Shown here piece after piece: positions 32,110 through 61,784 of a DNA stretch of 64,000 nucleotides. The first letter of the stretch is position 1. Each line of letters begins with the position of its first letter. The translations under genes were made by a program, and so were the position numbers. The stretch comes from Schmidtea polychroa. Taxonomy: Eukaryota. The notes under the pieces were generated by a model. The model was not told the DNA's origin, did no database searches, and saw only the letters and a list, made by a program, of their open reading frames with translations. The stretch covers positions 18,540,001-18,604,000 of the forward strand of contig CM097885.1 of the NCBI GenBank assembly GCA_044892525.1, in the 5' to 3' direction.

Positions 32110-32142
32110 AATGTTTTATATAATTTTTAAATTTTTTATCAA

Positions 32143-32868
<726 letters not shown>

Positions 32869-33537: not shown

Positions 33538-33592
<55 letters not shown>
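32948..33592 (+). repeat. Element B left TIR
   Basis: Inverse match to ~61163-61784; TGACGTCA palindromes and four ATATTACGTTGCGGTATTTT units. Confidence 0.92.
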
Positions 33593-33594
<2 letters not shown>

Positions 33595-33806
33595 ATTTCT
33601 ATCACAAATCATGGTTAACAAAAAACATAGTCGAATATTATAAAATTAAGGTATTGTGTTAGCACACACTCGTTATAATAATTAGCAATATAGTTTTTAT
33701 GGTGTATCAAATCAAAACCTTTCTTTTACATTTATAGTCTATCAACCAATCAAAATCATATGGTAATAGTATAAATAAAAACATTATATTTTAAATTATT
33801 TTAGAA

Positions 33807-34335: not shown

Positions 34336-34530
34336 TGTTTTTAATAGTATATTTAAATGAAAATAATTCAATTTTAAAATTTATTAACACACTGGGTAAA
34401 GGTCATAAAGGTAACTAACAAAACTTTAACATATTATTATTATTACAATGTATAAAAATTGTTCACAAAGTTACTGTTAAAAATAATCAAGACAATAAAA
34501 TCAATACATTTATTAAATAATTTAAACACA

Positions 34531-38309: not shown

Positions 38310-38355
<46 letters not shown>

Positions 38356-38402
38356 GTTGTTGTTGATATTATTATTATTATTGTTGTTGATATTATTGTT
38401 GA

Positions 38403-38445
<43 letters not shown>

Positions 38446-39097
38446 GTTAACAAACGATTCATATAAGCTATAGAAAAGAGACTTCTTAGAAGGTTTAAAT
38501 TGTTGGAGATGGAGTCTATGCTTATTATAAAATTCCTTATACGTTATAACTTCAATAACCTCACATTTAGGGCATAGGATGTAGGTGACACCGTTATATT
38601 TATGACTATAATATCTTTCCATTATATCATCGCAGTCATTATGATATTGACTATTACAAAAGTTTTGGTATTTCAAACCTATGAAAATATTTTTATCATA
38701 AAATGTGTAAAAAATATTAAGATAATAATCATTTTTAAAGTTTAAGATATTTTTCGTAAGATATTATTCAAAATTATCTTTTAAATAGTATCTTATAAAA
38801 AATATTATAAAATATATATAATTTAATTCGTTTTCATAAATAATATATAAAAGTTATTAATTATAATGTTCAAAATCATCATAAATAAATAGGTAAATCT
38901 TCTTTTCAAAATCATCATAAATAAATAAATAAGTAAATCTTCTTTTCATAAATTATCATAAATAAATAAGTAAATCTTCTTTTCATGAATAAATCTTCTT
39001 TTCATAAATCTTCCTTTCAAAATCATCATAAATAAATCTTCTTTTAAAATATCTTCTTTTCATGAAAAAATCTTCTTTTCATAAGTTTCTTCTTTTA

Positions 39098-39163
<66 letters not shown>

Positions 39164-39490
39164 ATATTTTAAAAAACTTAAAAACTTATAACAATAAATA
39201 AATACTTACATTTTCGTCCTTTCGAAAGAAATTTTCCAGCATCAGCAGCAACAGAAGTATTTATTACATTTCCATCTAAAAACATAATAAAAATAATAAT
39301 GATAATAAGAGTAAACTATTACCATTTATTCTATTCATGTCTACAGCTTGTCCGTCGATATTCATTTTAATTTGTTGATTAGTACCTAATAATCATATTA
39401 AAAATAATAAAATAATAAAATAATAAATTTACCATTAATTCCTCCAACGATCTTTCCGTCAACTCTTTGAATATTGTTGTTGTTGTTCAT
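34531..39490 (-). CDS. POLB: Protein-primed PolB (B), predicted 4 exons: 39490-39433, 39385-39323, 39275-39210, 38678-34531
   Basis: Intact IYADFE, DHDHFTG..CTTCN, YIDINNLYG, KLLNNSLYGK, GDTDS, LRPKCY; three phase-1 GT-AG introns keep one open frame. Confidence 0.92.
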
Positions 39491-39852
39491 GTTGCTAATA
39501 GATTTTTAAAAGTGATGAAAAAATGAAAGTGTAGACTATATAAGAGAGATATTACAGGTTTTATTAACCGACCAATGAAAATAGAGATAGGATAGGAAAA
39601 GACACTACATGTTTGTTTATACAAACCATGACGAAATAATGACCTTTACATGTCTTTATTACTCAGTGCTTTGTTACTTTGCATTGTGCATGCACTGAAC
39701 ATGTAATAGTATTACATAATATTTTTAAACATAAAATTTTAAACATAAAATAATAAAATAATAAAATAATAAAACAAATAATAATATTTAACAAATAATA
39801 ATAATATTTAACAAATAATTAAAATAGTCAACAAATAAAAATCATACATTTA

Positions 39853-40237
39853 TTAACCATCAAATTTTTTATACAACAACCATGCCAAACAGTGTTGACC
39901 ACATGTTTGAGTCAATGGATTTTGAAACATAGTTTTATTATATACAATAGGTTTCCCAATTGTTTGAAGTTTTGATATCAACAAAGCAGGATAATAGAAA
40001 CCCATAGGATCGAATACGAATATATTACTAGGTTTCACATATATAGCTATCCAATGTTCTCCACCAAGATGAGACGAATGAGTATTGATGATTATGGCTT
40101 GATTATTGCTCAAATAAGGAATTTTATCAAGAGGAAAAACTCCTACAAATTCATTTCCTAATATTTGTTTTCCAATTCGATTAACCTGAACAGAACTACT
40201 TTAATAAAATTAAACAGTATCAAAAAACTTACTCCAT
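39853..40237 (-). CDS. PRO: Adenain-like cysteine protease (B), intron 40196-40232
   Basis: GEHWIAIY, FDPMG, FQNPLTQTCGQHC; intron at the same position as in A. Confidence 0.9.
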
Positions 40238-40264
40238 GACAACTTTTTGTGTTTCTGTATACAT

Positions 40265-41488
40265 TTATACTAGCACGGTTCTATTTGCAGTAATTTGAAC
40301 TTCATTTTCAAATACTCCATATATTATAACATGTACCGGTTCAGTAATAGCTTTTGCAAACTTAATATCCAGTCGTAAATTCCCGTTTTGTGGTAGTTGA
40401 CTCTGATTTAAATCAAAATCAGGGGCTAAAACAAATGTAAAAAATGGATATTTGCTTTTAAATTCTTCTAGAGTTATTCCACAATTCAAGTTTTTATCTA
40501 AGTAACCCAGATTTCTAACAATACTCTGCATATATGTCGCACAGTAATTATCGCTTTCGAAATCTTGAGTATATGTTTCTCTATAATCAGTATTTTTCGA
40601 CAAAGTCAATGAAGTAACACCAAAATTTTTGAAAATTGAGCTGGAAGCAGTATAAGATCCATTATATTGTGTTTCACTTTGAAATGTTACCAGAATAAAA
40701 TTAGGCATTCTGCTGTCACCAAATATTTGTTCTTTATAGAATGATGAAGCACCTTTAGCAATAGCAAATTGTACAATTTCCTTTGTTTTTAAGGGATAAA
40801 TTGCATGTTTTGAATTAAGACCCAATTGATGACCAGCTAATACTGACGGGTCTACTCGAAATCTTCTCACCAATAATTTTGCATCAACTAATTGGCATAT
40901 TGGTGCACCAGTTGCACTAGTAAGAGATAATGCAGAATCAGACCTTTTCAATCTAATGTGTACATTAACTCCTGGTAGCAAATATTTCGGTTGATCCATA
41001 AAATCGAGTTGTAATGATGAGCACATAGTGAATGATTTTGAGCCTTTAACCCACTTTTTTCTTTCATCATCTGTTGCTGCATAACCCATAGGTGTAAGAC
41101 AGGTATTTTTAGTATCAGAATTGTAATTTAAAATAGTTTCTATCAAAGCCTTGTGAATGAATGTATTATTTCCGCCCTCAATCTTAATATTATTAAATCC
41201 CAAGACTGCATCTTTAAACAGAGTATGAAACATGAAATTGTTCGGTATTACATCTGCATTGGCATCCAAAACTTTTCTATCTTTATCTACAACCTTGATC
41301 TGAACAGTCAATAAAGTATCATTCAAATCTAAATATTCAGTTTGCGAACCATTAATATAAAACTCGATATCATTTCTACTATCAGTAATTGAATTCATAG
41401 GAAAAACTTCCTCAAAGGCCCCAAATTCGATTACAGCTTGAGGCGATGGTCTATCAAATATACATAATTCAGATTTACCACAAATCAT
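40265..41488 (-). CDS. PY: Major capsid protein (B)
   Basis: Full 407-aa homologue of 26158-27381. Confidence 0.9.
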   Translation of the reverse strand: MICGKSELCIFDRPSPQAVIEFGAFEEVFPMNSITDSRNDIEFYINGSQTEYLDLNDTLLTVQIKVVDKDRKVLDANADVIPNNFMFHTLFKDAVLGFNNIKIEGGNNTFIHKALIETILNYNSDTKNTCLTPMGYAATDDERKKWVKGSKSFTMCSSLQLDFMDQPKYLLPGVNVHIRLKRSDSALSLTSATGAPICQLVDAKLLVRRFRVDPSVLAGHQLGLNSKHAIYPLKTKEIVQFAIAKGASSFYKEQIFGDSRMPNFILVTFQSETQYNGSYTASSSIFKNFGVTSLTLSKNTDYRETYTQDFESDNYCATYMQSIVRNLGYLDKNLNCGITLEEFKSKYPFFTFVLAPDFDLNQSQLPQNGNLRLDIKFAKAITEPVHVIIYGVFENEVQITANRTVLV

Positions 41489-41847
41489 TTTGCAAATATA
41501 GTTCCATGTCCTTTCATTCGTTTGTTTATACGCGATATTCCATGTCCTTTACGTTTTGGAGCTGGGGCTGGGGGCGTATCTTTTTGAAACATACCAGCAA
41601 CTCCAGGTAGAACCTTCCCTAACTCAGCTAAAGCATTTGTTTTTATGGATGGTAATATTTTCTGTTCATTCATAATAACATCTTTTGCAGTTTTCATACC
41701 AAAACTACCGATACGTTTAAGAATAGGAAGTGCAAATCTCCCTATTGTTTTTAACCAGCCTGATCCGTATTGTTTACCAATAAAATATGGTAATTCACCG
41801 CCAGATTGGCTATCACTATACATACTAATAATATCGGAATTAGCCAT
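41485..41847 (-). CDS. Small virion/core precursor (B)
   Basis: QSGG, QYGSG-WLKTIGRFALPILKRIG amphipathic helix, basic tail. Confidence 0.75.
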   Translation of the reverse strand: MANSDIISMYSDSQSGGELPYFIGKQYGSGWLKTIGRFALPILKRIGSFGMKTAKDVIMNEQKILPSIKTNALAELGKVLPGVAGMFQKDTPPAPAPKRKGHGISRINKRMKGHGTIFAK

Positions 41848-42907
41848 CTACTTTACGAAAATATAGTGTCAAATGAGTTTTTGAGTCTTTTGGGAAGTTT
41901 ATAAGTTTTCCACTATCGTCACGAATATTTATTTCTATATTGTTTATACATGAGCTTGCTATTGGTAAATACATGAGATTATCGATATTTATATTGACAA
42001 CTTCATCATGTTCATATTTTCCAATCCATACCGATTTCAAAAGAGGAACACTGGAATCACCAACAATTATAGGCTCAATAATATTAGTATATATGAACAT
42101 TTGTTGATGATGTTCAAGTATTCTTGGTTTACGTATACCAGCCGATTTTTCCCGATATTGCTGCTTCTCTAATCCAAGTGTATTTGTCAAATTTTTATCA
42201 AATGTAACTTCGCAAATATCATCATTCAAACTGAAGGTAAACATCAAATCTTTCACAATGTCCAAACTTTTAAATATGTGTGAACAATTGTACTTTAAAT
42301 ATTTAAGTAACACATCAAGTTTATCAATATATAATTCGTCAGCAAAGGTGAATGATTCTTCAACTTCATTATTATACGACACTGATATTTTGATTTCTTC
42401 TCTCATTACACTGTTTGCTTCAAATAGATTAAAGCGTAATAAATATTCTGTTTCCATAACTTCATTTTTCAACTTATTGCAACCCAATCGTTTGGCATCT
42501 TCAATATATTCGAATGTTATTGTTAATGGTTTAAAATCACAACTGATATTTAATCCATCCTTGTAAAACATAGAGCAGTGCTGATCTAATAGTTGATTTG
42601 GAATATGATATGTTTTATCATAATTACTGATAATAAAGATACCGCTACATGTTTTCATAGCATTCCTTTTGAAATCAATCTTACATTGACTATAAAATGG
42701 GAATGTGTTGTACACGAATGTAAAATCTTGCAGTGCAACTTCCCAGTCCCCATTTAAAGAAATCGGATTCTGGAGATTGACCATGAATTTACTGGCTTGA
42801 TTATCTGGATGAATAAGCGGGCAACTATTGCTTGGTAAAATAGTATAAAAATTCACTTTACTAGATCCTTTTCTGATATCCATGATGGGTTTTGATAACC
42901 ATGCCAT
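41840..42907 (-). CDS. Minor capsid protein (B)
   Basis: FYTILPSNS..WEVAL..PLLKSVW..INNIEINIRDDSG. The codon that is ATG in C is GTG here (42856); in-frame ATGs exist upstream. Confidence 0.85.
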   Translation of the reverse strand: MAWLSKPIMDIRKGSSKVNFYTILPSNSCPLIHPDNQASKFMVNLQNPISLNGDWEVALQDFTFVYNTFPFYSQCKIDFKRNAMKTCSGIFIISNYDKTYHIPNQLLDQHCSMFYKDGLNISCDFKPLTITFEYIEDAKRLGCNKLKNEVMETEYLLRFNLFEANSVMREEIKISVSYNNEVEESFTFADELYIDKLDVLLKYLKYNCSHIFKSLDIVKDLMFTFSLNDDICEVTFDKNLTNTLGLEKQQYREKSAGIRKPRILEHHQQMFIYTNIIEPIIVGDSSVPLLKSVWIGKYEHDEVVNINIDNLMYLPIASSCINNIEINIRDDSGKLINFPKDSKTHLTLYFRKVDG

Positions 42908-43482
42908 TTGACATAGAATTGTTTATCCTTGCCGACCTTTTTAGTTTTCAATATCTTTTGAATTCTAAATACTTTTGGGGGAGGAATAACTTGTAATTCT
43001 TGCTCATAAAACTTTCCTTGTACAATATTGTTATCATAATCACTGATGACATACATTACTGGATTCTGACTAGTATTTATTTTTGAAATTACAAAGACTT
43101 CATCACTCCAATTTGTATCGAAATTTTTAATAAATGGTGATGCACTAATTTTACTAATTCTAACATGGTCACCGACTTTATATTTAGGTTTTGCAATTTT
43201 TACAGATTTCTTAGAATAGATTGTTTTTGATGTAATATCAACCGGTCTCAATCCATTAAGTCCTCGATGTGATGAATGATTATAACTTGTTATTATTTTC
43301 GGTAAAGCATTTACCCATTTTTTATTACCTTGATGCACGAACAATTTCTTTAATCTATCTCTCAATGTTCGATTAAATCTTTCAACATGGGCAGCTTTGT
43401 ATTGAGAATGTACCGAGTAGTGATTTATTTTCAGTTTATCGAGGATTTGCTTGACTTTACTGTTGTAGAATTCTTTACCTAA

Positions 43483-43553
<71 letters not shown>

Positions 43554-43587
43554 CTAAATCTGTTTGCAAGTTATTAGGATGTCCATC
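42853..43587 (-). pseudogene. INT: Integrase of B, 3' part (disrupted by element C); (ATT)n intron 43479-43553
   Basis: DGHPNNLQTDLG^KEF..VERFNRTL..chromodomain VKWHGY. Confidence 0.92.
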
Positions 43588-44945
<1,358 letters not shown>

Positions 44946-45514
44946 CTAAATATTGATGTACTACTATTCGCAGCAATATTGTTAGAAATTGGTAACGTTG
45001 AATTGATTTTCAGATATTCTATTGATCCTTTGATTGTTTGAATTTCTCTTAATAATAATTCAATCTTTTTTAACAAATAATCATGCTTCTTATCAATAAT
45101 CTTCATATTCTTTTTATTTTCAGTAATAGAGTTATTGAAAACCTCAATATGATCAATCAATTTAATTTTTATATTTTGTATATATTCAAATGTTAGTTCA
45201 TAACTGTTTTCTAAATTCTCCAATCTTTGAGATATTCTTTTTCCTGGATGCTTTGACCATTTTGGTTTATCGAGAATATATAAAATATCCATCAACTTGG
45301 CTGTATTCGGACAAACACATATTGATTTATTAAAAGACTCCACCGTTATTGTTGTATTGTGTGAGCACACACTCGTTATAATAATTAGCAATATGAATAG
45401 AGTTTTCATGGTGTATCAAATCAAAACCTTTCTTTTACATTTATAGTCTATCAACCAATCAAAATCATCCGGTATTAGTATAAATAAAACATCATATTTT
45501 AAATTATTGTAAAA

Positions 45515-46035
45515 ATGTCTCAATTTATGGAAAATCTTTTAAGAGAACTCGTCAACAGGAATATTATGGAAAGCCTATGTTTCCTGGTCGATCGGACCGA
45601 AAAGATTATAGAAGGTAATCACATTGATTATGACGATGTGATCAATTCTGATTGTCTCGAAACCAAAAAATTCTATTTTAATAGAATTTTTAACTGTCTA
45701 TGCGACGATCAGATGAAGTGGACCCGAATACTAGTAGGGTTCGCTTATATGAAAATAATAATCCAAAGAAGTCTATGGGACTCAGAGCACTATTATCAGT
45801 GGTCTCAAGAAGTAATACTTTTATAATTTATATTTTATTAATATTTATTTTCTAGATAATCAAGTCAAAGTTTCAACCATGGATTGAAGCCAATGGCGGA
45901 TGGGGAGTACTCAATCAACTCGCCAGAAATGCAAAAGAAATAGACGATCAGAAAAGAAAATTTAAAAACTATGTAAAACTTGCAACAGGTGTTGCTATTT
46001 TGTATATTTTAACCAGATTTTTAAATAAAAATTAA
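45515..46035 (+). CDS. Bcl-2-family protein (C), join(45515..45811,45856..46035), 158 aa
   Basis: MKWTRILVGFAY; PWIEANGGW; tail anchor ATGVAILYILTR; same intron position as in B. Confidence 0.82.
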
Positions 46036-46118
46036 TATAGTTATTTTTGTTTGATTTTTAAATAAATTTTTAAATAACATTTTAAATAAATTTACAAACA
46101 CTAATTAACTAAGATTTA

Positions 46119-46412
46119 TTAATTAACACATTCGCAGTCGTCATCTCCACATTTCATTATATTTTCAACGACATGATCAATACAATCATTCGTAATATTA
46201 TCTTTAGATTCATCTTTAGGTTCCTCTATAGGTTCCTCTATAGGTTCATAGATTTCCTCTTGAGTTTCTTCCTCATCAATTTCTTGAGTTTCTTCCTCAT
46301 CATCAAATCCTGTATCTTGACTCTCAACTAACCAGCCGATATTTAAGGCATTTGTAATAGATAATATATCCTCCATTTTCACACCAGATATTTCTGCTAA
46401 CTTTTCCAACAA
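46119..46412 (-). CDS. Small acidic protein (C); short upstream exon near 46475-46490 likely
   Basis: Homologue of 60757-61091. Confidence 0.62.
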   Translation of the reverse strand: MLEKLAEISGVKMEDILSITNALNIGWLVESQDTGFDDEEETQEIDEEETQEEIYEPIEEPIEEPKDESKDNITNDCIDHVVENIMKCGDDDCECVN

Positions 46413-46624
46413 AAAGTTGATTAAAAATTCTAAATAATAAATAATTCGGTAATTAATTAATTAATCATGTTAACCTTTTTCTACAGTCATTTTCATCACT
46501 TTAAAACTAAATTATAAGTTTGTTTATAGATTTTCTTTGTTAAATTTGCATGTCATTTGCATTTATGTTGCAATTAATAAAGAGAAAAAAACAAATCTGA
46601 CTAATACATTTATTAAATATAACA

Positions 46625-47035
46625 TTAAAATATTTGTGAAAGTCTAGCAGACATAATTTTCCAAATAGGAGAATATACATCATTATTATCAACTTTATAT
46701 CCCTGGATTGCAATTGTTATATACCAATTTTCATTTTCTTTGAAAGCGATTTCATCAAAGGAATCATAAAATCTTGCATATTTATTGTTGAACCATGCAT
46801 GTTGATTACACGATAGATTCGAATCTATCCGTTTAAAAACATCATCAATAGTTTTGACATCAATCATTGAAAGCGTGCCGGATAAGAATTCAAATTTAGT
46901 TGGAATTAGCTTGACTGGTGCAACCAATTTCATATTGATTTCTTCTTTCAAAAAATACATTTTGTAGTTGTGGAACATTTGAACTGGTTGTACCATTTCT
47001 TTAGGTTTTTCGGTGCTTGAAATTTTCTTGGTCAT
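46625..47035 (-). CDS. Conserved 136-aa 'SPIWKI' protein (C)
   Basis: Homologue in B; pseudogene in A. Confidence 0.8.
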   Translation of the reverse strand: MTKKISSTEKPKEMVQPVQMFHNYKMYFLKEEINMKLVAPVKLIPTKFEFLSGTLSMIDVKTIDDVFKRIDSNLSCNQHAWFNNKYARFYDSFDEIAFKENENWYITIAIQGYKVDNNDVYSPIWKIMSARLSQIF

Positions 47036-47395
47036 CGTGAATAATGAATAAATTTAAATGTTACAGGGTTTTTATACCTTTGACTCATGCCTATCAACCA
47101 ATCAGATTATAGCATGTCTTTGTTTAAATTGCATTCAAAATGCATTGATGTTGCATTGTCACATGTTCTATTTACAGATTTATTATTAATGTTTAAATTA
47201 TTACATGTTTTGATATATGTACAGATTTATTATTAATATGTTTCATTATTATTAATGTTTTTACTATTAATACTATTCATATTTCTATTACTATTATTAT
47301 TATTATTACTATTATTATTATTACTATTATTATTTCAAATATAAAACACAATAAAACACAATAAAAAAGATAAAACACAATAAAAAATACATTTA

Positions 47396-47809
47396 TTAAT
47401 AACCCAAATCTACAATCTTGGAGTAGTGAAACCTTCTCAGAGTTTTCACTAACTCCCATTCGACATATCGCCGATATCGATCGGCGCAACATGAGCATCC
47501 GATGATGCACTGGTACTCTGGCTCCATTTGTTTGATGGTTCTGTTAATCTTTATATCCCACAGAAACTGGTGAAATACATCCATGATTCGAATTTGAGTC
47601 GCATAGAATATCAGATCTGGAATGATCTCAGGTTCGCGATCCTTGATAATTTCAATAATTTGAGGATAATAATATTTTATCCTTTTTATCATAACTTCTA
47701 AATATTTCTCTAAAATAATAAATAGTAAATAATGTGAAAAAAAAATTTTAAATTTACCGGAATCGTCGATATCTTTCATGAGGGTTGCAGAGCTTGGTAA
47801 TTTGTACAT
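47396..47809 (-). CDS. CxxGCxCC protein (C), intron 47710-47757
   Basis: YYPQI..PEIIPDL..CIIGCSCC. Confidence 0.7.
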   Translation of the reverse strand: MYKLPSSATLMKDIDDSGKFKIFFSHYLLFIILEKYLEVMIKRIKYYYPQIIEIIKDREPEIIPDLIFYATQIRIMDVFHQFLWDIKINRTIKQMEPEYQCIIGCSCCADRYRRYVEWELVKTLRRFHYSKIVDLGY

Positions 47810-47882
47810 AGTGTTGAAAAAATGAATTCTAAACAAAAACCGTTTGTTTAAATCAATCAATAACCAATTAGAAATTAACCAA

Positions 47883-48320
47883 TTAGAAATCGACCAATGA
47901 AATTATCTCATTTCGAACATTGTCAACAAATTCTCTATACTCCAAATTTCTCAACCCCAACATGACAACCTTTCCACTAGCAAACACGTTGACACATATA
48001 GGGTTATATTTTAATAGTCTTAGTGCCGGAAACAATTCCGGTTCAAACATACAATCACATTTTTTCGACATGTTATATAGATTGATACTATGTCCCATAT
48101 CCATAGTAACGGTAATTGATTGGATTTTAATATTATTTATTCGATATTGTAATTTATTAATATCCAAAGGTTTCTTACATCCCATGATTCTGCATTTACC
48201 AGTCTTGAAAAATATTATCGGATATTTCCCACTTCTATCGATAATTTGCTGGGGTTTCCCTGGTGGGAACCTCATATTCGATACATCAAAATTTCCTCGA
48301 TAATTTATATTTGCTAACAT
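47883..48320 (-). CDS. TBP-like protein (C)
   Basis: FFKTGKCRIMG; FEPELFPALR..NVFASGKVVMLG. Confidence 0.85.
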   Translation of the reverse strand: MLANINYRGNFDVSNMRFPPGKPQQIIDRSGKYPIIFFKTGKCRIMGCKKPLDINKLQYRINNIKIQSITVTMDMGHSINLYNMSKKCDCMFEPELFPALRLLKYNPICVNVFASGKVVMLGLRNLEYREFVDNVRNEIISLVDF

Positions 48321-48419
48321 TATTAAATCATTTATGAAAATTAGTCTTTATATACAAATTGAGCACGAGTTCATTAAATCATCGAATATAAACAAATACA
48401 CATTTATAAAATATTTGAA

Positions 48420-49046
48420 ATGGAATTAAGAAATGATGCTGTATACCAAATCGTTGGTCCGAGTGGTAGTGGAAAAACATTATTTGTTTGTAAATTACTA
48501 AAATCCAATTTATTCAAATCAAAATTCAACAGGATTTATTGGCATAGGGGTGCTGATGAAGAACATGGATTAACTCAATCAAGTTTCTGTAAATTAAAAA
48601 ACATGAAAATAGTAAAGGGATTCGATAAAAACTGGTCCAGCCGATTAAAGAAAGGCGATGTCATTATTATCGATGATTTGTATCAAGAAGCTAATAAAGA
48701 AAAAGATTTTAATAATTTATTTACAAAGATTAGCAGACATGTCGGTGTAACAGTTATTTTCATAACTCAAAATCTATTTCATCAAGGTGGGGCACATCGA
48801 ACACGTAATTTAAATGTACAATATTTAGTCATTTTCAAGAATCCTAGAGATGCAACAGTGATTGATTTTCTTGCACGTCAAGCATACCCTAACAATCGTA
48901 ATTTTCTTATCAGTGCATTTCAAGATGCTACAAAAATACCTCATGGATATATATTTCTTGATTTCACACAACAATGTCCTGATGATTTACGTGTAAAAAC
49001 AGATATTTTCAACCCAAAAGGTGCCATGGTTTATAAACAAAGTTGA
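48420..49046 (+). CDS. ATP: Packaging ATPase (C)
   Basis: GPSGSGKT, IIIDD, ITQNLF. Confidence 0.93.
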   Translation: MELRNDAVYQIVGPSGSGKTLFVCKLLKSNLFKSKFNRIYWHRGADEEHGLTQSSFCKLKNMKIVKGFDKNWSSRLKKGDVIIIDDLYQEANKEKDFNNLFTKISRHVGVTVIFITQNLFHQGGAHRTRNLNVQYLVIFKNPRDATVIDFLARQAYPNNRNFLISAFQDATKIPHGYIFLDFTQQCPDDLRVKTDIFNPKGAMVYKQS

Positions 49047-49064
49047 AAACCTCTATGAATAATA

Positions 49065-49598
49065 ATGTTTCTAAAAGCAAGGGTGAAAAATATTAGGAAA
49101 TTAAGAAAAGGTATTAGAAAGACTATTAAAGTTCCAAAGGTTCCACCAACAACTAGTTATACACCATCTAAAAAACTTGTAACTGAAAATTTCTCTGCAA
49201 TGAATCTTATTTCGAAAAATCCTAAACCTAAACGTAAAACCCGTAAAACCCGTAAAACCGGTAAAAAAGTAGTTAAAAATCATCGCAGTTTTCCATTTTT
49301 TAATGCATTGTTAAAGGCTCCGAGTATGAAAAGAATGAATATATTGCAATCATTCCCAAATTTTGTTGTCGATGATTTACTCAATATTATACTTAAAGTA
49401 GTCAAAGGCAAAATTAAAATCAGTAAATCAAAAAAGCATTTATTGAGCAAACATAGGAAACCTTTATTATCTTTAGTAAATAATAAAAATCGTAAGCAAA
49501 TGAGGAAAATTATATATAAACAACAAGGTGGATTTATTGGTGCCTTGATACCTCTGGCATTATCATTATTAGGTGGAGTTGTAGGAAATCAATCATAA
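49065..49598 (+). CDS. Basic core protein precursor (C)
   Basis: Lys/Arg-rich; ends QQGG-FIGALIPLALSLLGG. Confidence 0.78.
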   Translation: MFLKARVKNIRKLRKGIRKTIKVPKVPPTTSYTPSKKLVTENFSAMNLISKNPKPKRKTRKTRKTGKKVVKNHRSFPFFNALLKAPSMKRMNILQSFPNFVVDDLLNIILKVVKGKIKISKSKKHLLSKHRKPLLSLVNNKNRKQMRKIIYKQQGGFIGALIPLALSLLGGVVGNQS

Positions 49599-49601
49599 AC
49601 A

Positions 49602-49829
49602 ATGGGTGCTAATCCTTCATTGCCCGACATTAAATTTAATTTTAAATCTTCTTGTTGTAATGGAGAAGATTTGGACGAACCCAGAAGACGAAGCCGGTTT
49701 CGGTGGAGTGGCAAAATTAAACAAAAGAGTTCCGAATTCGAAAAAAGAAACCCAGAAGTGGTTATCAGATCAGCTTGCGTACAGTTTGAACAAACCAATG
49801 CGGAAAAGATTTCCAACAAGAGCGTATAA
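49602..49829 (+). CDS. Overprinted MGANPS..CC small protein (C)
   Basis: 75 aa, overlapping the integrase start in another frame. Confidence 0.62.
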   Translation: MGANPSLPDIKFNFKSSCCNGEDLDEPRRRSRFRWSGKIKQKSSEFEKRNPEVVIRSACVQFEQTNAEKISNKSV

Positions 49830-50047
49830 AACATTTGGTATTGACGATTTATGGCAAATGGATTTGATGGAGATGATACCATATTCGAAAATTAACAATG
49901 GGAATAAATATATTTTAACATGTATTAATGTATACAGCAGGTTTGCACGAGCAATACCAGTCAAGGCAAAATCTGCAGAAGAAATGTCCAAGGCAATTAA
50001 TATTTTATTTAAAGATGGACATCCTAATAATTTGCAAACAGATTTAG

Positions 50048-50109
<62 letters not shown>

Positions 50110-50739
50110 TTAGGTAAAGAATTCTACAATAGCAAAGTTAAGCAAATCCTCGATAAACTGAAAATAAATCACTACTCGGTACATTCTCAATACAAAGCTG
50201 CCCATGTTGAAAGATTTAATCGAACATTGAGAGATAGATTAAAGAAATTGTTCGTGCATCAAGGTAATAAAAAATGGGTAAATGCTTTACCGAAAATAAT
50301 AACAAGTTATAATCATTCATCACATCGAAGACTGAATGGATTGAGACCGGTTGATATTACATCAAAAACACCATTATCTAAAAAATCTGTAAAAATTGCA
50401 AAACCTAAATATAAAGTCGGTGACCATGTTAGAATTAGTAAAATTAGTGCATCACCATTTATTAAAAATTTTGATACAAATTGGAGTGATGAAGTCTTTG
50501 TAATTTCAAAAATAAATACTAAACAGAATCCTGTAATGTATGTCATCAAAGACAATGATAATAATATTGTACAGGGGAAATTTTATGAGCAGGAATTACA
50601 AGTCATTCCTCCCCCAAAAGTATTTAGAATTCAAAAAATATTGAAAACTAAAAAGGTCGGTAAGGATAAACAATACTATATCAAATGGCACGGTTATCAA
50701 AACCCGTCATGGATATCGTCAAAAGACCTAGTAAAATGA
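49660..50739 (+). CDS. INT: Integrase with C-terminal chromodomain (C), intron 50048-50113; apparently intact
   Basis: WQMDL, QTDLG^KEF, VERFNRTL; FRIQKILK..YYIKWHGY..SWI. Confidence 0.92.
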
Positions 50740-51740
50740 ATTTTTATATTATTTTACCTAGCAATAGCTGTCCACTTATTCATCCAGATAATAAAGCCAG
50801 CAAATTCAGGGTCAATCTTCAAAATCCGATATTTTTGGATAATAGCTGGGAAGTTGCTCTGTTGGATTTTACATTTGTATACCAAGCCTTTCCATTTTAT
50901 AGTAAGGCTAAAATTGGATACAAAAAGAATGAGTGGCAGGATAGATTATTGTCTATGATCATTGATAATGCAGATGATGAAGTTCGGTTGTCTAACTCAA
51001 CTGATCCAGCTGTGAAAATGTATATTAACCATTCATATATAGTAGTTGAATGTAAACATTATCCTTTTACTGTAAAATTTGATAGTTTGGAAATGGCAAA
51101 ACGATTGGAATTAAAAACCCAAAGTCATAAAGTTCTTTCCGATAAATTCACTATGCTACGACCGGGATATTCCAAAACTGTACAGCGATTTGAACCAATT
51201 TTATTTACAGTTTCATATCCGGGTATAACGTCTGGTACATTTGAGTTCAAAGATAATTTATACATTTCGAAATTGGATGAATTACAGACATATTTAAAAC
51301 AAAGTGGTTTATTTAAATCATTGGAAATATCAGACAGATTCAAATTCAGTTTGAATCCCGAATTTACTGAAATTACTTTTGATGCAAATCTAATAAAAAC
51401 ATTAGGATTATCAAAAGCAACATATGCTCAAGATGATCAAGGTACCCTAGCTCCGAAAATAATTAAACTTCACCAACAAATGTTCATCTATAGTAATATT
51501 GTTGATCCTGTAATTGTTGGCGATTCTTTGGTCCCACTCCTGAAATCTGTTTGGATTGAAAAATATGAACATGATGAAGTAGTCAATATAAATATCGATA
51601 ATCCCATGTATTTACCTGTGTCAACCTCATGTATAAACAATATAGAAATAAATATACGTGATGATTCTGGTAAATTAATCGCATTTCCAAAAGATTCAAA
51701 AACTCATTTAACATTACATTTTCGTAAAGTAGATGGCTAA
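50736..51740 (+). CDS. Minor capsid protein (C)
   Basis: MNFYIILPSNS..WEVAL..; ATG overlaps the integrase TGA. Confidence 0.86.
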   Translation: MNFYIILPSNSCPLIHPDNKASKFRVNLQNPIFLDNSWEVALLDFTFVYQAFPFYSKAKIGYKKNEWQDRLLSMIIDNADDEVRLSNSTDPAVKMYINHSYIVVECKHYPFTVKFDSLEMAKRLELKTQSHKVLSDKFTMLRPGYSKTVQRFEPILFTVSYPGITSGTFEFKDNLYISKLDELQTYLKQSGLFKSLEISDRFKFSLNPEFTEITFDANLIKTLGLSKATYAQDDQGTLAPKIIKLHQQMFIYSNIVDPVIVGDSLVPLLKSVWIEKYEHDEVVNINIDNPMYLPVSTSCINNIEINIRDDSGKLIAFPKDSKTHLTLHFRKVDG

Positions 51741-52098
51741 TTCGGATATTATAAGTATGTATAGTGGTAGCCAATCTGGCGGTGAATTACCATATTTTAT
51801 TGGTAAACAGTACGGATCAGGATGGTTGAGAACAATTGGTAGATTTGCACTTCCTATTCTTAAACGTATTGGTAGTTTTGGTATGAAAACTGCTAAAGAT
51901 GTTATTATGAATGAACAGAAAATATTACCATCTCTAAAATCAAATGCTTTAGCAGAATTAGGGAAAGTTTTACCCGGGGTTGCAGGTATGTTTCAAAAAC
52001 CAGCTCCAGCTCCAGCTCATGCTCCAAAACGTAAAAGACATGGAATATCACGTATAAACAAACGAATGAAAGGCCATGGAACTATATTTGCAAAATGA
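51733..52098 (+). CDS. Small virion/core precursor (C)
   Basis: Near-identical to 41485-41847. Confidence 0.75.
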   Translation: MANSDIISMYSGSQSGGELPYFIGKQYGSGWLRTIGRFALPILKRIGSFGMKTAKDVIMNEQKILPSLKSNALAELGKVLPGVAGMFQKPAPAPAHAPKRKRHGISRINKRMKGHGTIFAK

Positions 52099-52847
52099 TT
52101 TGTGGTAAATCTGAATTATGTATATTTGATAGACCGTCGCCCCAGGCTGTAATAGAATTTGGGGCGTTTGAGGAAGTTTTTCCAATGAATTCAATTACTG
52201 ATAGTAGAAATGATATAGAGTTTTATATTAATGGTTCGCAAACTGAATATTTAGATTTGAACGATACTTTATTGACTGTTCAGATCAAGGTTATAGATAA
52301 AGATAAAAAAGCTTTGGGTGATGCTGCTGATGCAATACCGAACAATTTCATGTTTCATACTCTTTTTAAAGATGCTGTGTTGGGATTTAATAATATCAAG
52401 ATTGAAGGTGGTAATAATACATTCATTCACAAGGCTTTGATAGAAACTATTTTAAATTACAATTCCGATACTAAAAATACATGTCTTACTCCAATGGGAT
52501 ATGCTGCAACCGACGATGAAAGAAAAAAGTGGATTAAAGGCTCAAAAACATTCACCATGTGTTCATCGTTACAACTCGATTTTATGGATCAACCGAAATA
52601 TTTGCTTCCAGGAGTTAATGTCCACATTCGATTGAAAAGATCCGATTCTGCACTAACTCTTACTAGTGCTACAGGTGCACCAATATGTCAATTAGTTGAT
52701 GCAAAATTATTGGTGAGAAGAGTTCGAGTAGACCCCTCAGTATTAGCTGGTCATCAATTGGGTCTTAATTCAAAACATGCAATTTATCCCTTAAAAACAA
52801 AGGAAATTGTACAATTTGCTATTGCTAAAGGTGCTTCATCATTCTAA
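52095..52847 (+). pseudogene. PY: Major capsid protein (C), truncated at aa 250 by a deletion
   Basis: Matches B's MCP to ..AKGASSF, then switches to PolB sequence. Confidence 0.9.
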
Positions 52848-54655
52848 ATTGTTCTTTAGCAAAAGCTGTGAAAACCTTAACTACTTTTCCTTTGACTTCG
52901 TCTGTCTTTCAAGGGTCGATGATTCACTCTAAAGGTATCTTTCCATATAATTTCGCCACTTCTTTAGATGTTCTTGAATCGACTTTAGAATTACCTCCTA
53001 TTTGGTCTGATGTTACGGAAGATCAGTACGCTGAGGCTCAACTAATTTGGAGTCAGCATAACTGTAATAATTTGTTAGATTATATGTTAATCTACCTAAA
53101 ATTGGACGTATACCTCCTCGCAGATTATTTTCAGCAATTCCGCGGTAAGGCAATTGCTTACAATGGTCTGGATCCTCTTAATTTCTACGGGATTCCCGGT
53201 ATGTCATGGGCCTCAGCGCTTATGACATTAACGGAACCAATAGAACTTCTGCAGGACATGGAAATGTATAATTTCTATGAGGGAGGTATCCGGGGTGGGT
53301 TAACATTTGTTAACAAACATTACACGGCTACTTCAGATGATACAGAATTATTGTACATTGATATAAATAATCTGTATGGTTGGGCTCTTAGCCAAAATCT
53401 TCCGTATGGTGATTTTTCTTGGGTGAATAATAACTTGAATGATGTTTTACTTGAATGTATGAACACGGATATTGATAACCTTCCATATGGGTATACTATG
53501 GAGGTCGATATCGATATTCCGGAATGTGTGCATGACTTTTTGAATGATTTTCCGCTTGCGCCGGAAAAGTTGTGCCCGCCTAATTCAAAAGTTGAGAAGC
53601 TTATGCTTACGCATTGGCCAAAGAGGAACTATGTTCTTCATTGGAGGCTTCTCAAATTGTATATAGAATTAGGTGCGGTTGTTGTAAATATTCATAGGTG
53701 TATAAAGTTTAAACAAGGACCTATCTTTAAATCCTACATAGACACCAACACCACTTTACGATCTCAGTCTACTAGCGAGATATATAGGGACTTGTTTAAA
53801 TTGTATAATAACTCTCTTTACGGTAAATCGGTTGAAAATTTGAAAAAAAGAATGAATTTGAGGTTGTGTAATTCATCCGAAAAGATGATAGTATACTCCT
53901 CAAAGCCGACTTTCAGAAAGTCCATAAGAATCGATCAAGATCTGATTGCGGCACATTTGGAAAAAGATGTGATTTGTTTAGACAGACCTAGCTACATTGG
54001 TCAAACAGTACTAGATCTGTCTAAACTGCGGATGTACCAGCTCCAATATATTGATTTGGAGAAGTACAGACGCCAATATAAATGTATCATAAATATTATT
54101 GCCGGTGATACCGACAGTTTTTTTTTGGAAATAAAAAATTTAAAATTAACAACTTTATTACCTCAGATGATCTCAGATAATTTATTGGATACGTCAAATT
54201 ACGATCCAACCCACCCCTTGTATAGTAGGAACCTTGACTCGGTCATCGGGAAGTTTAAAGATGAGAGCAAGGGATTAGGGTATTCTGAATGGGTTTTCTT
54301 ACGCCCTAAATGTTATAGTCTTTTAGGTAGTAAGGAAACGGTAAAAGCGAAGGGGGTTAAATTATCTGGGACATCAATAACTCATGAAACATATCTAAAT
54401 TGCTTTAATTCAAATCAGGTGATTTCTGTACCGCAGACTAGAATAGGTACTAGAAATCACCAACTTTTTACTTTTAAAAATTCGAAAATTGCCCTAAGTA
54501 ATAATGATGATAAGCGCGCGTGGCTAGGGAAAAACTTAAGTTACGCATTTGGGCACTATTTAGGAGTTGACGAATTAAGCGAATATGATGAGGAATTCAG
54601 TGCAGCTCCAAGTCCCAGTTTTGACGACAGCGAATGGGACGAAGATCAAATTTAA
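52847..54655 (+). pseudogene. POLB: PolB (C), C-terminal ~600 aa only
   Basis: Starts mid-gene at (N)CSLAKAVKTL; has KGIFPY, YIDINNLYG, NNSLYGK, GDTDS; terminal-protein, ExoI/II and endonuclease VII regions absent. Confidence 0.9.
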
Positions 54656-54865
54656 ATAGAAAAAACTTTATATTTTTGATTTATAAAAACTTGTATAGTG
54701 ATTTCATGATTTATAAAAAATTGTATAGAAACTTTTATTTAAAAACTTGTACAAAAACCTGTATATTGTATAAAACTTGTATTTATATATACATATTCAA
54801 TAAAATTTTTAATCAGATTTTTTAAGTATTTGGTGTTTTATTATAATTTTTTATATTTAATGGTG

Positions 54866-55015
54866 ATTTTTATATAGTCTGCAGTGAGCATGCAGCTATA
54901 TGTTTTTTTATATAGTCTGCAGTGAGCATGCAGCTATATGTTTTTTTATATAGTCTGCAGTGAGCATGCAGCTATATGTTTTTTATATAGTCTGCAGTGG
55001 GCATGCAGCTATATC
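54866..55015. repeat. Four ~38-bp tandem imperfect palindromes
   Basis: TATATAGTCTGCAGTGAGCATGCAGCTATAT units separated by T runs. Confidence 0.85.
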
Positions 55016-55053
55016 AATGAAATAATAATAATAATAATATTAATAATATTAAT

Positions 55054-55114
<61 letters not shown>

Positions 55115-55164
55115 TTAATAATAATAATAATAATAATATTAATAATAATAATATTAATAATAAT

Positions 55165-55255
<91 letters not shown>

Positions 55256-55393
55256 CTTTAAACAGGTTGCAAAGGGTACTAGTCATGCTTATTATTGTTA
55301 TACATTTGATGGTTACATTTTGAAAGCTCTATTTTGATTGGTTATCACAATTTTTATAAATGTAAAAAAACAAAAGTAATTTAGTTATTAATA

Positions 55394-56021
55394 ATGATTT
55401 ATACAAATAAAACCGATGAATGTGTAACACATTTGGTAACTTTATTATTTTGTCAATATTTTTTTTATATGTCATTTATAGCAAGGAAGAAATAAGGAAA
55501 AATTAAGTCCGACCGATTCCGAAATTTCAATGAAATTTTTTAACAATACACTTGAAGATTTTATAAATAATCATGATACTTACAGCGATAAGCAACTCAT
55601 AAATATTTTAAAAATTTTCAAACATTCCTCTATTGAATATTTGTTTGATTTATTTAATTATGAGAAATCCATTTTAAAGTTATCTTGTTATTTAATGTAC
55701 TTAGAAAAAATAGCAGTAAACAATGATTCGCTGAATGAATACTTTTGGAGTTGTATGTTTTTAAGGTTGAAACCTGGATATAGTAGATTCATTTATGAAT
55801 GGATAGCGAAAGCCGATTTGATTGAAAATAAGCTAACGAAAAAACTGAGCGATGTTAAGAAAAGGTATTTAACCTGTTCAATTTGTAAAGAAAATCGAGT
55901 TTCGGTTTTGTATTTACCGTGCGGTCACGTAATTGTTTGTTCTAAGTGTAACGAGAAGAATGTTCGCAAGTGTCAAGCTTGTTCAACACTGATTAATGAA
56001 TATCATACTATATACATGTAA
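55394..56021 (+). CDS. IAP/MDM2-type C-terminal RING finger protein (C), join(55394..55435,55482..56021)
   Basis: CSICKENRVSVLYLPCGHVIVCSKC..CQAC..IYM at the extreme C-terminus; the 46-bp intron keeps frame; no BIR domain seen. Confidence 0.82.
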
Positions 56022-56028
56022 ATAAATA

Positions 56029-57256
<1,228 letters not shown>

Positions 57257-57616
57257 TCCATCTTTAAATAAATCATTAACAGCTTTAGACATTTCATCTG
57301 CAGATTTTGCCTTGACGGGTATTGCTCGGGCAAACCGACTGAATACATCAATACATGTTAAAATATATTTATACCCATTGTTAATTTTCGAATAAGGTAT
57401 CATCTCCATCAAATCCATTTGCCATAAATCATTTATTCCATATGTTTTATATACTCTTGTTGGGAATCGTTTCTGCATTGGTTTGTTCAAACTGTACGCA
57501 AGCTGGTCTGATAACCACTTCTGGGTTTCCTTTTTCGAATTCGGAACTCTTTTGTTTAATTTTGCCACTCCACCGAAACCGGCTTCGTCTTCTGGGTTCG
57601 TCCAAATCTTCTCCAT
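57257..57616 (-). pseudogene. INT: Integrase of B, 5' part
   Basis: MEKIWTNPED..WQMDL..IDVFSR..LFKDG, then the C terminus sequence. Confidence 0.92.
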
Positions 57617-57674
57617 TACAACAAGAAGATTTAATATTAAATTTAATGTCTGGTAATGAAGGATTAGCACCCAT
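57447..57674 (-). CDS. Overprinted MGANPS..CC small protein (B)
   Basis: 75-aa ORF in an alternative frame across the integrase start; conserved with C. Confidence 0.62.
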   Translation of the reverse strand: MGANPSLPDIKFNIKSSCCNGEDLDEPRRRSRFRWSGKIKQKSSEFEKGNPEVVIRPACVQFEQTNAETIPNKSI

Positions 57675-57677
57675 TGT

Positions 57678-58172
57678 TTATGATCGACTTCCTATTATTC
57701 CACCTAATAATGATATTGCTAAAGGTATCAATGCACCGATAAATCCCCCTTGTTGTTTATATATAATTTTTCTCATTTGTTGACGATTTTTATTATTTAC
57801 TAATGATAGCAAAGGTTTCCTATGTTTACTCAATAATTGCTTTTTAGATTTACTGATTTTAATCTTACCTTTCACTACTTTAAGTATAATATCGAGTAAA
57901 TCATCGACAACATAATTTGGAAAAGATTGCAAAATACTGTTTCTTTTCATACTGGGTGCTTTTAACAATGTATTGAAAAACGGGAAACTCCGATGATTTT
58001 TAACAACTTTTACTTTCTTAGTGGTTTTACTTTTAGTTTTAGGTTTAGGATTTTTCGAAATGAGATTCATTGCAAGAAAATTTTCTGTAATAAGTTCTTT
58101 AGATGGAGTATAACTAGTTGTTGGTGGAACTTTTGGTTGTTTTTTACTCGATATCCTTGTTTTTGAAAACAT
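57678..58172 (-). CDS. Basic core protein precursor (B)
   Basis: Lys-rich; ends QQGG-FIGALIPLAISLLGG. Confidence 0.78.
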   Translation of the reverse strand: MFSKTRISSKKQPKVPPTTSYTPSKELITENFLAMNLISKNPKPKTKSKTTKKVKVVKNHRSFPFFNTLLKAPSMKRNSILQSFPNYVVDDLLDIILKVVKGKIKISKSKKQLLSKHRKPLLSLVNNKNRQQMRKIIYKQQGGFIGALIPLAISLLGGIIGSRS

Positions 58173-58185
58173 GATTTATGTGTTT

Positions 58186-58824
58186 TCAAATTTGTTTTAA
58201 ACTTTGTTTATATACCATGGCGCCTTTTGGGTTGAAAATATCTGTTTTTACCCGTATATCATCAGGACATTGTTGTGTGAAATCGAGAAATATATACCCA
58301 TGAGGTATTTTCGTAGCATCTTGAAATGCACTGATAAGAAAATTACGGTTATTAGGGTATGCTTGTCGTCCAAGAAAATCGATGACAGTTGCATCTCTAG
58401 GATTCTTGAAAATAACTAGATATTGTACATTTAAATTACGTGTTCGATGTGCACCACCTTGATGAAATAGATTTTGTGTTATGAAAATAACTGTTACACC
58501 AATATGTCTGCTGATTTTTGTGAATAAATTATTAAAATCCTTTTCTTTATTGGCTTCTTGATACAAATCATCGATAATGATGACATCATCTTTTTTCAAA
58601 CGACTTGACCAGTTTTTATCAAAACCCTTTACTATTTTCATGTTTTTCAATTGACAGAAACTTGATTGAGTCAATCCATGTTCTTCATCGGCGCCCCTAT
58701 GCCAATAAATATTGTTGAATTTTGTTTTGAACAAATTAGATTTTAGTAATTTACAAACAAATAATGTTTTTCCACTACCACTCGGACCAACGATTTGGTA
58801 TACTGCATCATTTCGTAATTCCAT
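58186..58824 (-). CDS. ATP: Packaging ATPase (B)
   Basis: GPSGSGKT, IIIDD, ITQNLF. Confidence 0.93.
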   Translation of the reverse strand: MELRNDAVYQIVGPSGSGKTLFVCKLLKSNLFKTKFNNIYWHRGADEEHGLTQSSFCQLKNMKIVKGFDKNWSSRLKKDDVIIIDDLYQEANKEKDFNNLFTKISRHIGVTVIFITQNLFHQGGAHRTRNLNVQYLVIFKNPRDATVIDFLGRQAYPNNRNFLISAFQDATKIPHGYIFLDFTQQCPDDIRVKTDIFNPKGAMVYKQSLKQI

Positions 58825-58928
58825 TTTTTAAATTTAAACTATATAATTATTGTTTATATTGATAATTTAAATGAACTCCTTTTTAAAATAACTATATATA
58901 ACAGAGTTTTTATAATTATTTCATTAAA

Positions 58929-59393
58929 ATGCTTTCAAATATAAATTACAGGGCAAAAGCTGATGTATCAAAAATGGTATTTCCAATGGGGAAACCACAA
59001 CAACTTATCAATAGAAGTAAAAAATATCCAATAATATATTTCAAAACTGGTAAATGTAGAATTATGGGGTGTAAGGAAATAATCAAAGCTAGTGAATATA
59101 ATGTTTATGATTTAGAAATACAATCGATAACCGTAACTTCCGATATAGGTTTTTCTTGTAATTTAAATAATTTGGCTAAATTAATACCATGCTTTTACGA
59201 ACCAGAATTATTTCCAGCTTTGAGATATATAAAATATAACCCTATGTGTGTAAATATATTCGCTAGCGGTAAGATAGTAATTCTTGGAATAAAAAATATT
59301 GATTACAAATGTATAGTTGATAATATCATATCTGAAATTAAATCAATAATTGAAGGAAAAGAATTTTTAGATTTTTTATTATCACTTAATTAA
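58929..59393 (+). CDS. TBP-like protein (B)
   Basis: YFKTGKCRIMG; YEPELFPALRY..NIFASGKIVILG. Confidence 0.85.
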   Translation: MLSNINYRAKADVSKMVFPMGKPQQLINRSKKYPIIYFKTGKCRIMGCKEIIKASEYNVYDLEIQSITVTSDIGFSCNLNNLAKLIPCFYEPELFPALRYIKYNPMCVNIFASGKIVILGIKNIDYKCIVDNIISEIKSIIEGKEFLDFLLSLN

Positions 59394-59514
59394 TTATTTA
59401 TCATTGCAAATTCAATGCAATTAAAATGCATGATTCTGATTGGTCAAAATCTAATTGGCTGATGATTATTTATAACAAAATGTTTTCGGTTTAGTTGTCA
59501 TTTATTCAACAAAA

Positions 59515-59924
59515 ATGTACAACATACAAAGTTCCGCAATCACCTCAATGAAAGAGCATGCAAATTATGGTAATTTCAAATTTTTATTATTACATTAATA
59601 TATATATTTTTTACAGATGAATATCAATCAATTATCCTGCAAAGATTATGCTTCTATTATCCAGAATTAAATGAAATTCTACAAGATAGAGATCCAGCTA
59701 TCATTCCGGATTTGGTATACAACCAAACTCGAATCTGGATATTCGATATAATAAACACCTTTCTATGGGATATCAAGATAGGAAGGGGGATGAAAGAAAT
59801 GAAAGCAGAGGCTCCTTGCATTTTCGGATGTAGCTGTTGCAATTTCCGTTATCAACAATATGTTGAATGGTGTTTGGTGAAGACTCTGAGAAATCATCAC
59901 TCGAGTCAGATTGTATCAAAATAA
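59515..59924 (+). CDS. CxxGCxCC protein (B), intron 59570-59616
   Basis: Spliced ORF MYNIQSSA..YYPEL..PAIIPDL..CIFGCSCC. Confidence 0.7.
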
Positions 59925-60203
59925 ATTTTTTTATGTTGAATTGTTTTGTTTTTGTAAATCGAAATAATAGAAATAGAAATAATAATAATAGAAATAATAT
60001 AAGTAATAATAGAAATATTAGAAATAATAATAATAAAAAACAATATTTATAATAAAAACATTAATGCAACATTAATGCAAATGACATGCAATTTAAACAA
60101 AGACATGTAATTTAAACAAAGACATACATCAATCTGATTGGTTGATAAACAATAGTCATAGGTATAAAAACCCTGTACCATTTCATTTTAATCATTATTT
60201 ACG

Positions 60204-60623
60204 ATGACAAAGAAAATTTCAAGCACTGAAAAGCCAAAAGTTCTTCCAGAACTTGTACAACCTGTTCAAATGTTCCACAACTATAAAATGTATTTTTTAA
60301 AAGAAGAAATCAATATAAAATTGGTGTCACCGATCAAGCTAATTCCAACTAAATTTCAATTCTTATCCGGCACGCTTTCAATGTTAGATGTTAAATCTAT
60401 TGATGAGGTTTTCAAACGGTTGAATACGAATCTATCTTGTAATCAACATGCCTGGTTCAACAACAGATATGCAAGATTTTATGATTCATTTGATGAAATC
60501 AGTTTCAAAGAAAACGAAAATTGGTATATAACAATTGCAATCCAAGGATATAAAGTTGATAATAATGATGTGTATTCTCCAATTTGGAAAATTATGTCTG
60601 CTAGACTTTCACAACTATTTTAA
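60204..60623 (+). CDS. Conserved 139-aa 'SPIWKI' protein (B), function unknown
   Basis: Near-identical to 46625-47035; preceded by CCAAT (reverse) and TATAAAA. Confidence 0.8.
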   Translation: MTKKISSTEKPKVLPELVQPVQMFHNYKMYFLKEEINIKLVSPIKLIPTKFQFLSGTLSMLDVKSIDEVFKRLNTNLSCNQHAWFNNRYARFYDSFDEISFKENENWYITIAIQGYKVDNNDVYSPIWKIMSARLSQLF

Positions 60624-60756
60624 TGTTATATTTAATAAATGTATTAGTCATATTTGTTTTTTCTCTTTATTAATTGCAACATTAATGCAAATGACATGCA
60701 AATTTAACAAAGAAAATCTATAAACAAACTTATAATATAGTTTTAAAGTGTTATTA

Positions 60757-61091
60757 ATGACTACAGAAAAAGGTTAACATGATTAATTAAATACCGAATT
60801 ATTTATTATTTAGAATTATTAATCAACTTTTTGTTGGAAAAGTTAGCAGAAATAGCTGGTGTAAAAATTGAGGATATATTATCTATTACAAATGCCTTAA
60901 ATATCGGCTGGGTAGCTGAGAGTCAAGATTCAGGATTTGACAATCATGAAGAAACTCAAGAAATTGATGACGAAATCTATGAACCTATAGAGGAACCTAA
61001 AGATAATATTACGAATGATTGTATTGATCATGTCGTTGAAAATATAATGAAATGTGGAGATGACGATTGCGAATGTGTTAATAAATTTTAA
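60757..61091 (+). CDS. Small acidic protein (B), intron 60773-60813
   Basis: Spliced MTTEKELLINFLLEKLAE..; homologue at 46119-46412. Confidence 0.65.
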
Positions 61092-61162
61092 AATTGAATT
61101 ATTTTCATTTAAATATACTATTAAAAACAATAATATTAATTTTTATTCATATATCTACAGAA

Positions 61163-61784
<622 letters not shown>

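Follow-up and report, generated by a model that had tools for sequence, protein, structure and literature searches.

The window analysed here, a stretch of 64,000 nucleotides of DNA from the AT-rich eukaryote Schmidtea polychroa, holds three Maverick/Polinton elements (A, B and C) whose integrase genes are interrupted at one and the same codon by an insert that is very probably a real spliceosomal intron. The account that we favour, and hold to be probable, is that an ordinary host-type (U2) spliceosomal intron was gained by one branch of Maverick integrases and that, in the family of B and C, it came to be filled with ATT repeats. The predicted intron of element C occupies positions 50048..50113 of the forward strand and consists of 66 nt, GT(ATT)20TTAG, that of element B (43479..43553, reverse strand) consists of 75 nt, GT(ATT)23TTAG, and both are of phase 1; in element A, the same position and phase hold a 43-nt insert (29443..29485, reverse strand) that is AT-rich, has GT-AG ends and a length of 3n+1, and contains no repeat. 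In all three, the Gly codon of TDLG^KEF is split after its first base, and the Asp of TDLG, a motif aligned by way of a full-length homologue with the TDNG of solved retroviral integrase cores, is the second catalytic Asp of the integrase. The initial annotation had described GT(ATT)n..TTTAG inserts of 66 bp in C and 75 bp in B splitting this codon, and its coordinates, lengths and phase proved exact.

The inserts have GT...AG ends and their removal restores the reading of the uninterrupted homologues, as expected of U2 introns. In element C, exon 1 (49660..50047, forward strand) runs from the start codon to the first base of the TDLG Gly codon, and exon 2 (50114..50739, forward strand) runs from the ERFNRT helix to a chromodomain-like end; the identity of the gene as an integrase is supported by a match of exon 1 to rve (E 1.2e-5, below the Pfam cut-off) and by matches to integrases in the PDB. 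Element C is itself inserted in the integrase of B, about 30 nt upstream of the intron, so that the gene of B is already split: exon 2 lies at 42853..43478, and exon 1 is found as one piece downstream (43554..43587) and one piece upstream (57257..57616) of the insertion, all on the reverse strand. The integrase of A, given here as the span matched by tblastn (28814..29866, reverse strand), is broken by a frameshift in exon 1 and by a stop codon in exon 2.

The site was continuous in all 120 homologues listed among 827 matches (115 by pattern and 5 by eye) and uninterrupted in 54/54 DNA loci that cover it (61 were fetched, 7 of which end short of the site), in homologue sets that favour unsplit genes through length limits and mostly prokaryote-style gene calls. 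Among the 150 representatives listed, 95 were continuous at the site, 40 had no recognisable site, 15 were divergent and none had poly-Ile; this search is uninformative on introns. In viral contigs, no locus with exon 2 and no match to a junction pattern allowing introns of 34-64 nt was found, and an alignment search gave one distant, intronless locus. Split genes appear to occur among the relatives of A: the proteins P0122 and P0123 end 1-4 residues past TDLG, and P0142 and P0144, which come from the same sources and from contigs of equal length, are their respective matching second halves. The pairs P0122/P0142 and P0123/P0144 look like the halves of genes split at the intron site, each pair presumably lying on one contig, and both cluster with A (support 100/99) in a tree of 24 rows that comprised five intron-bearing and 19 chosen intronless proteins; a tree of 67 rows was a quick version. 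Two proteins were left out of the intron group of the 24-row tree. One, P0125, was rejected as intron-bearing, for it terminates at the site yet groups with the intronless P0007. The other, P0121 (an ENA protein of 144 aa), is 99% identical to exon 1 of C, passes from TDLG straight into the final 14 integrase residues, and is a putative internal deletion or assembly join beginning at the 5' end of the intron. The initial annotation had called the insert an intron on the strength of the 43-nt insert of A, a call that appears well backed by the shared site and phase of that insert, by the uninterrupted homologues, by the split relatives of A, by the ratio of nonsynonymous to synonymous change between B and C and by the other short GT-AG introns predicted in these elements.

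That ratio (dN/dS) was 0.14 over 120 codons (dN 0.039, dS 0.27) and 0.13 over 207 codons (dN 0.029, dS 0.22), values that need not date the repeat because the elements are mosaic, with patches of 99-100% identity vs patches of 50-70%. The integrase exons of B and C are under purifying selection with the repeat in place. In the 30 nt on each side of the intron, B and C differ at four positions, which argues against a recent homogenisation of the intron segment. Values of dN/dS for exon 1 of C against A and of B against A were discarded as invalid because of the frameshift of A. Variants from public runs point the same way: 38 of the 40 listed (of 156) fall in the integrase gene and 26 of these 38 are synonymous, in a set that includes related elements down to 85% likeness.

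These data bear on the idea that the insert does not work as an intron and is instead a microsatellite or retroelement tail with a short target duplication, carried by dead or trans-complemented copies, or else an expansion made by the assembly. The insert in B and C can indeed be seen as two TTAGGT copies with nothing but ATT units between them, and each of the three copies in the window is defective in some way; because C is non-autonomous and the integrases of B and A are broken, no copy in the window proves that a repeat-bearing integrase works. In addition, one contig end of run X11, which is only guessed to be RNA, extends 39 letters past the matched part and fits the unspliced form, 34 being expected by k-mer reasoning if the transcript were spliced; we give this little weight. 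However, the insert of A and its relatives, which is not repetitive, has the same site, phase and GT-AG ends, the exons of B and C show the constraint described above, the repeat stands at two loci with different unit numbers, and most of the listed in-gene variants are synonymous, which together make this explanation an unlikely one.

If the insert is, as we prefer, a spliceosomal intron, it would have been gained where the conserved Leu-Gly-Lys codons already provide an AG|GT site, at which a short duplication or the repair of a staggered break may have made both splice sites together. A short direct repeat runs across the ends of the insert (TTTAG|GTA in B and C and, in A, a match of 11 nt that includes a single mismatch), and TTAG|GTAAAG or TTGG|GTAAAG stands at the site in 10/51 intronless DNA matches; with a proto-splice site thus already present, a short duplication yields donor and acceptor together. 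The direct-repeat pattern could also come from convergence on the splice consensus. An origin of the interior of the A intron as a tandem duplication of the flanking exon was tried and rejected (22/43 matches, null mean 24.3, p 0.89). Once gained, the insert would be removed by the host spliceosome and the integrase made normally, and the interior in B and C, a pure ATT run, would be kept clean and length-variable by replication slippage. Such an interior may well be tolerated because (AUU)n is rich in U, has no structure and presents a branch-like A at each third position.

The 24-row tree makes the A clade and the B/C clade each firm and does not place them against the intronless clades, and a single origin of the A-type and B/C-type introns is not rejected (p-AU 0.285) and is seen in 19% of bootstrap trees. 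We lean moderately toward one gain, the interior of which was later overrun by ATT in B and C, with the TTA-rich introns found elsewhere in B picturing the starting state. Two gains at the site, the one in B and C having been born as a microsatellite between two TTAGGT copies and independently of the intron of A, make a possible but doubtful history.

The TTA-rich introns just mentioned belong to the gene for the family-B polymerase (pPolB), the start of which, in both B and A, appears to lie in small exons farther upstream, a gene model built from the sequence alone. In B, the leader (38679..39490, reverse strand) would comprise three small exons separated by introns that are all of phase 1 and keep the frame, namely two of 47 nt each (39386-39432 and 39276-39322), both TTA-rich, and a long one of 531 nt (38679-39209) that holds (AAT)21; in A, the predicted intron (24167..25278, reverse strand) has the donor context and acceptor phase seen in B, so that the last donor and the acceptor phase are kept between the two elements. 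Among the core genes, intron calls were made in the integrase and pPolB only, the ATPase, capsid and protease genes matching intronless relatives without inserts among the matches listed. In a check for introners, the remaining intron calls in the window differed in sequence from the integrase insert. A Pfam search of the elements gave no polymerase match, and pPolB was identified by family-B motifs in its translation and by matches to a related locus. Downstream of the leader in B, AAT/AAC runs in the coding sequence of pPolB (38229-38449, reverse strand) encode long poly-Asn tracts.

Repeats of the ATT class are a general feature of these elements. Runs of (ATT/AAT)6+ number 18 in the 42.8 kb of the elements vs 0 in the 21.2 kb of flank. 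Seven of them lie in terminal inverted repeats (TIRs), five between genes, three in the coding sequence of the polymerase, one in the 531-nt pPolB intron and two in the integrase introns, and all 17 perfect microsatellites of at least 20 bp in the window are of the ATT/AAT class. As 100 shuffles of the element region gave no (ATT/AAT)6+ run, the ATT runs are not due to chance. The number of repeats differs between copies of the integrase intron (20 units in C vs 23 in B), and paired runs in the TIRs are unequal (38/37, 17/38 and 67/46+13); if the assembly is right, slippage is frequent in the elements.

The initial annotation had proposed a slippage-tunable splicing switch on integration; in the form considered here, slippage would alter the number of ATT units and through it the efficiency of splicing and the amount of active integrase, with retention giving an in-frame poly-Ile enzyme, inactive or inhibitory. 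Several features are compatible with it: the unit number does differ between copies and such runs change fast in the elements, a retained B or C transcript meets no premature stop, and intronic repeat length affects splicing in CFTR (TG)n, APOA2 (GT)n and eNOS (CA)n, according to the available part of one source (PMC5622345). The donor is also weak. The usual donor consensus is GTRAGT; the other donors in the window come closer to it than does the GTATTA of B and C, and splicing may therefore be leaky. As had been noted, both inserts are 3n and stop-free, and their retention would read G-I(n)-L-G with no frameshift, adding 22 residues in C or 25 in B. However, these last properties are the arithmetic of a triplet unit, because a length of 6+3n is always divisible by three and an in-frame ATT is never a stop; only the 6-nt remainder is free to vary, and this represents one event in the ancestor of B and C with a chance of about 1 in 3. 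The repeat, moreover, is generic across the elements, and the splice signals do not depend on the unit number: donor and acceptor are unchanged by it, as is the spacing of the nearest branch-like A. U-N-A, a candidate branch-point motif, recurs every third base, and the 3' end is U-rich. About 12 ATT units would still equal the length of the intron of A, and both introns are well above 43 nt. RNA structure was ruled out as the basis of a switch, since (AUU)n is unstructured and folds worse than 200/200 shuffles (z +2.7 and +3.4).

Read-through, in turn, is not conserved among the copies. A retained A intron would reach a stop after four codons, in P0122, P0184 and P0123 the insert is read for 1-4 codons before a stop, and P0183, which shares a cluster with a protein 99% identical to exon 1 of C, has an interrupted Ile-rich stretch followed by a stop (seen in the protein only, and possibly an assembly join). 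There is therefore no conserved functional retention product, read-through differing among A, P0122, P0123, P0183 and B/C, and apart from the interrupted run of P0183, no poly-Ile protein was found among the 335 proteins examined. The tunable switch thus has no positive evidence in its favour, and we judge it improbable, although repeat length may affect splicing; a microsatellite birth of the B/C intron combined with a drifting length that tunes the output of active integrase is, as a joint claim, more improbable still. On the preferred reading of an ordinary intron, the unit number would drift without consequence at the sizes observed, and retention would yield an inactive and strongly hydrophobic protein, a product of error and not a regulator. 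The retained stretch of C has a mean Kyte-Doolittle value of 4.5 over 19 residues vs 0.82 elsewhere in the protein. A Pfam match to DUF6709 over the poly-Ile stretch was taken as a composition artefact.

Retention might also be regulated with the repeat incidental, as a host- or tissue-controlled gate on the integrase resembling the third intron (IVS3) of the P element, whose retention controls the transposase (PMC7776569, available in part). The position of the intron inside the catalytic core, where any retention kills integrase activity, and the restriction of intron calls to the integrase and pPolB among the core genes are in line with such a gate, for which the P element gives a precedent. 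Still, the gate has neither a conserved retention product nor a wide distribution in its favour, the intron being absent from most relatives, and we give it little weight. For IVS3, CFTR, APOA2 and eNOS, as far as the available parts of the sources go, regulation has been measured and a repressor or binding factor defined, whereas the integrase intron described here is known from its sequence. A tunable switch, if true, would add a novel means by which a virus-like element is held in check, and nothing here shows one.

Elements A, B and C are Maverick/Polinton elements (adintovirus-like), as seen from their AGT TIRs, duplications of a 6-bp target site (TSDs), integrase with a chromodomain-like end, A32-like ATPase, C5 protease, capsid genes and family-B polymerase motifs. 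Element A (19024..32868) has 13,845 bp, B (32948..61784) has 28,837 bp including the nested C, and C (43588..57256) has 13,669 bp with TIRs of about 1.2-1.35 kb and its TSD at 43582-43587 and 57257-57262; all three have perfect 6-bp TSDs and AGT...ACT TIR ends. The Pox_A32 ATPase is present in all of them and Peptidase_C5 in A and B, and the double-jelly-roll capsid gives a weak match in all three by homology. Element C has no protease gene, and its major capsid gene is missing the end and its pPolB gene the first part. The core genes of Mavericks have been described as intronless in vertebrates (PMC8097293) and in Caenorhabditis (10.1101/2022.07.12.499685), in the parts of both sources that were available; unlike these, the present elements have short predicted GT-AG introns in the integrase and in the leader of pPolB.

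Comparisons with other intron gains draw on partly available sources as well. New introns of Daphnia and Drosophila are flanked by direct repeats and often represent parallel gains (PMC4202315, PMC2809761), and the integrase intron resembles them in its AG|GT gain site, the direct repeat at both ends, the weak donor and the unrelated interiors at one position; it differs in belonging to a virus-like element and in its pure triplet interior, and the 3n stop-free class to which the B and C inserts belong is reported, in the part of the literature seen, to be depleted among new Drosophila introns. Maverick-like elements of dinoflagellates carry introners (PMC11957031), likewise spliceosomal introns within Maverick/Polinton-like elements, but these are described in the available text as mobile, genome-wide families, whereas the insert studied here occupies one homologous position without sign of mobility. 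Ginger1 integrase-like transposases, which have 1-4 GT-AG introns (PMC2836005), offer a further parallel as a related DDE enzyme of a DNA transposon that gained ordinary introns, though Ginger1 is not a Maverick. The available parts of PMC8502044, PMC10748475, PMC11296320 and 10.1101/2024.01.15.575659 hold nothing on integrase introns, and beyond the dinoflagellate introners we found no Maverick integrase intron in a literature search whose scope lay mostly outside subscription papers and outside Repbase and supplements, so that a prior mention is possible. What remains is modest, namely an intron gained, perhaps on two occasions, where a proto-splice site was duplicated in a core gene that had been described as free of introns. 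It would be a datable gain in a Maverick core gene that ties the expression of the integrase to the host spliceosome, and, if spliced, the B and C inserts indicate that a near-minimal intron can consist of two splice sites around one triplet repeat. For annotation based on open reading frames (ORFs), copies of the B/C type appear as intact genes with a poly-Ile insert and copies of the A type as broken ones.

Some further features of the window deserve mention. Element C is a mosaic deletion derivative: between 52035 and 54655, its major capsid gene is 89% identical overall to that of B, with the last 100 bp 100% identical, and is truncated and fused to a remnant of the polymerase gene, for which the identity to B or A is no more than 66%; next comes a RING-finger gene (55482-56021). 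The 6-bp target of C is identical to bases 5-10 of the TIR of that element when these are reverse-complemented (43582-43597 and 57247-57262), so that target and element end form a short inverted repeat, which is not so in A or B and is probably due to chance. The TIRs of C (43692-44419 and 56526-57152) contain long arrays of a unit of about 42 bp rich in TGACTCA, presumably an AP-1-like site. A and B are inserted 79 bp apart in the pol region of an LTR retrotransposon with reverse-transcriptase/RNase H remnants (17958-19075 and 61744-62232), suggesting a local insertion hotspot. A TBP-like gene stands beside the ATPase gene in all three elements (31224-31691, 47883-48347 and 58902-59393; Pfam TBP, E 5e-13 to 1.5e-15) and is also present in the relatives L006, L035 and L043, and weak Bcl-2-like ORFs (E 0.001-0.003) occur near one end of B (33795-34127) and of C (45503-45826). 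At 241-912 on the reverse strand, an intronless ORF joins a Rab/Ras-like piece to a proteasome-subunit piece and resembles a captured mRNA mosaic.
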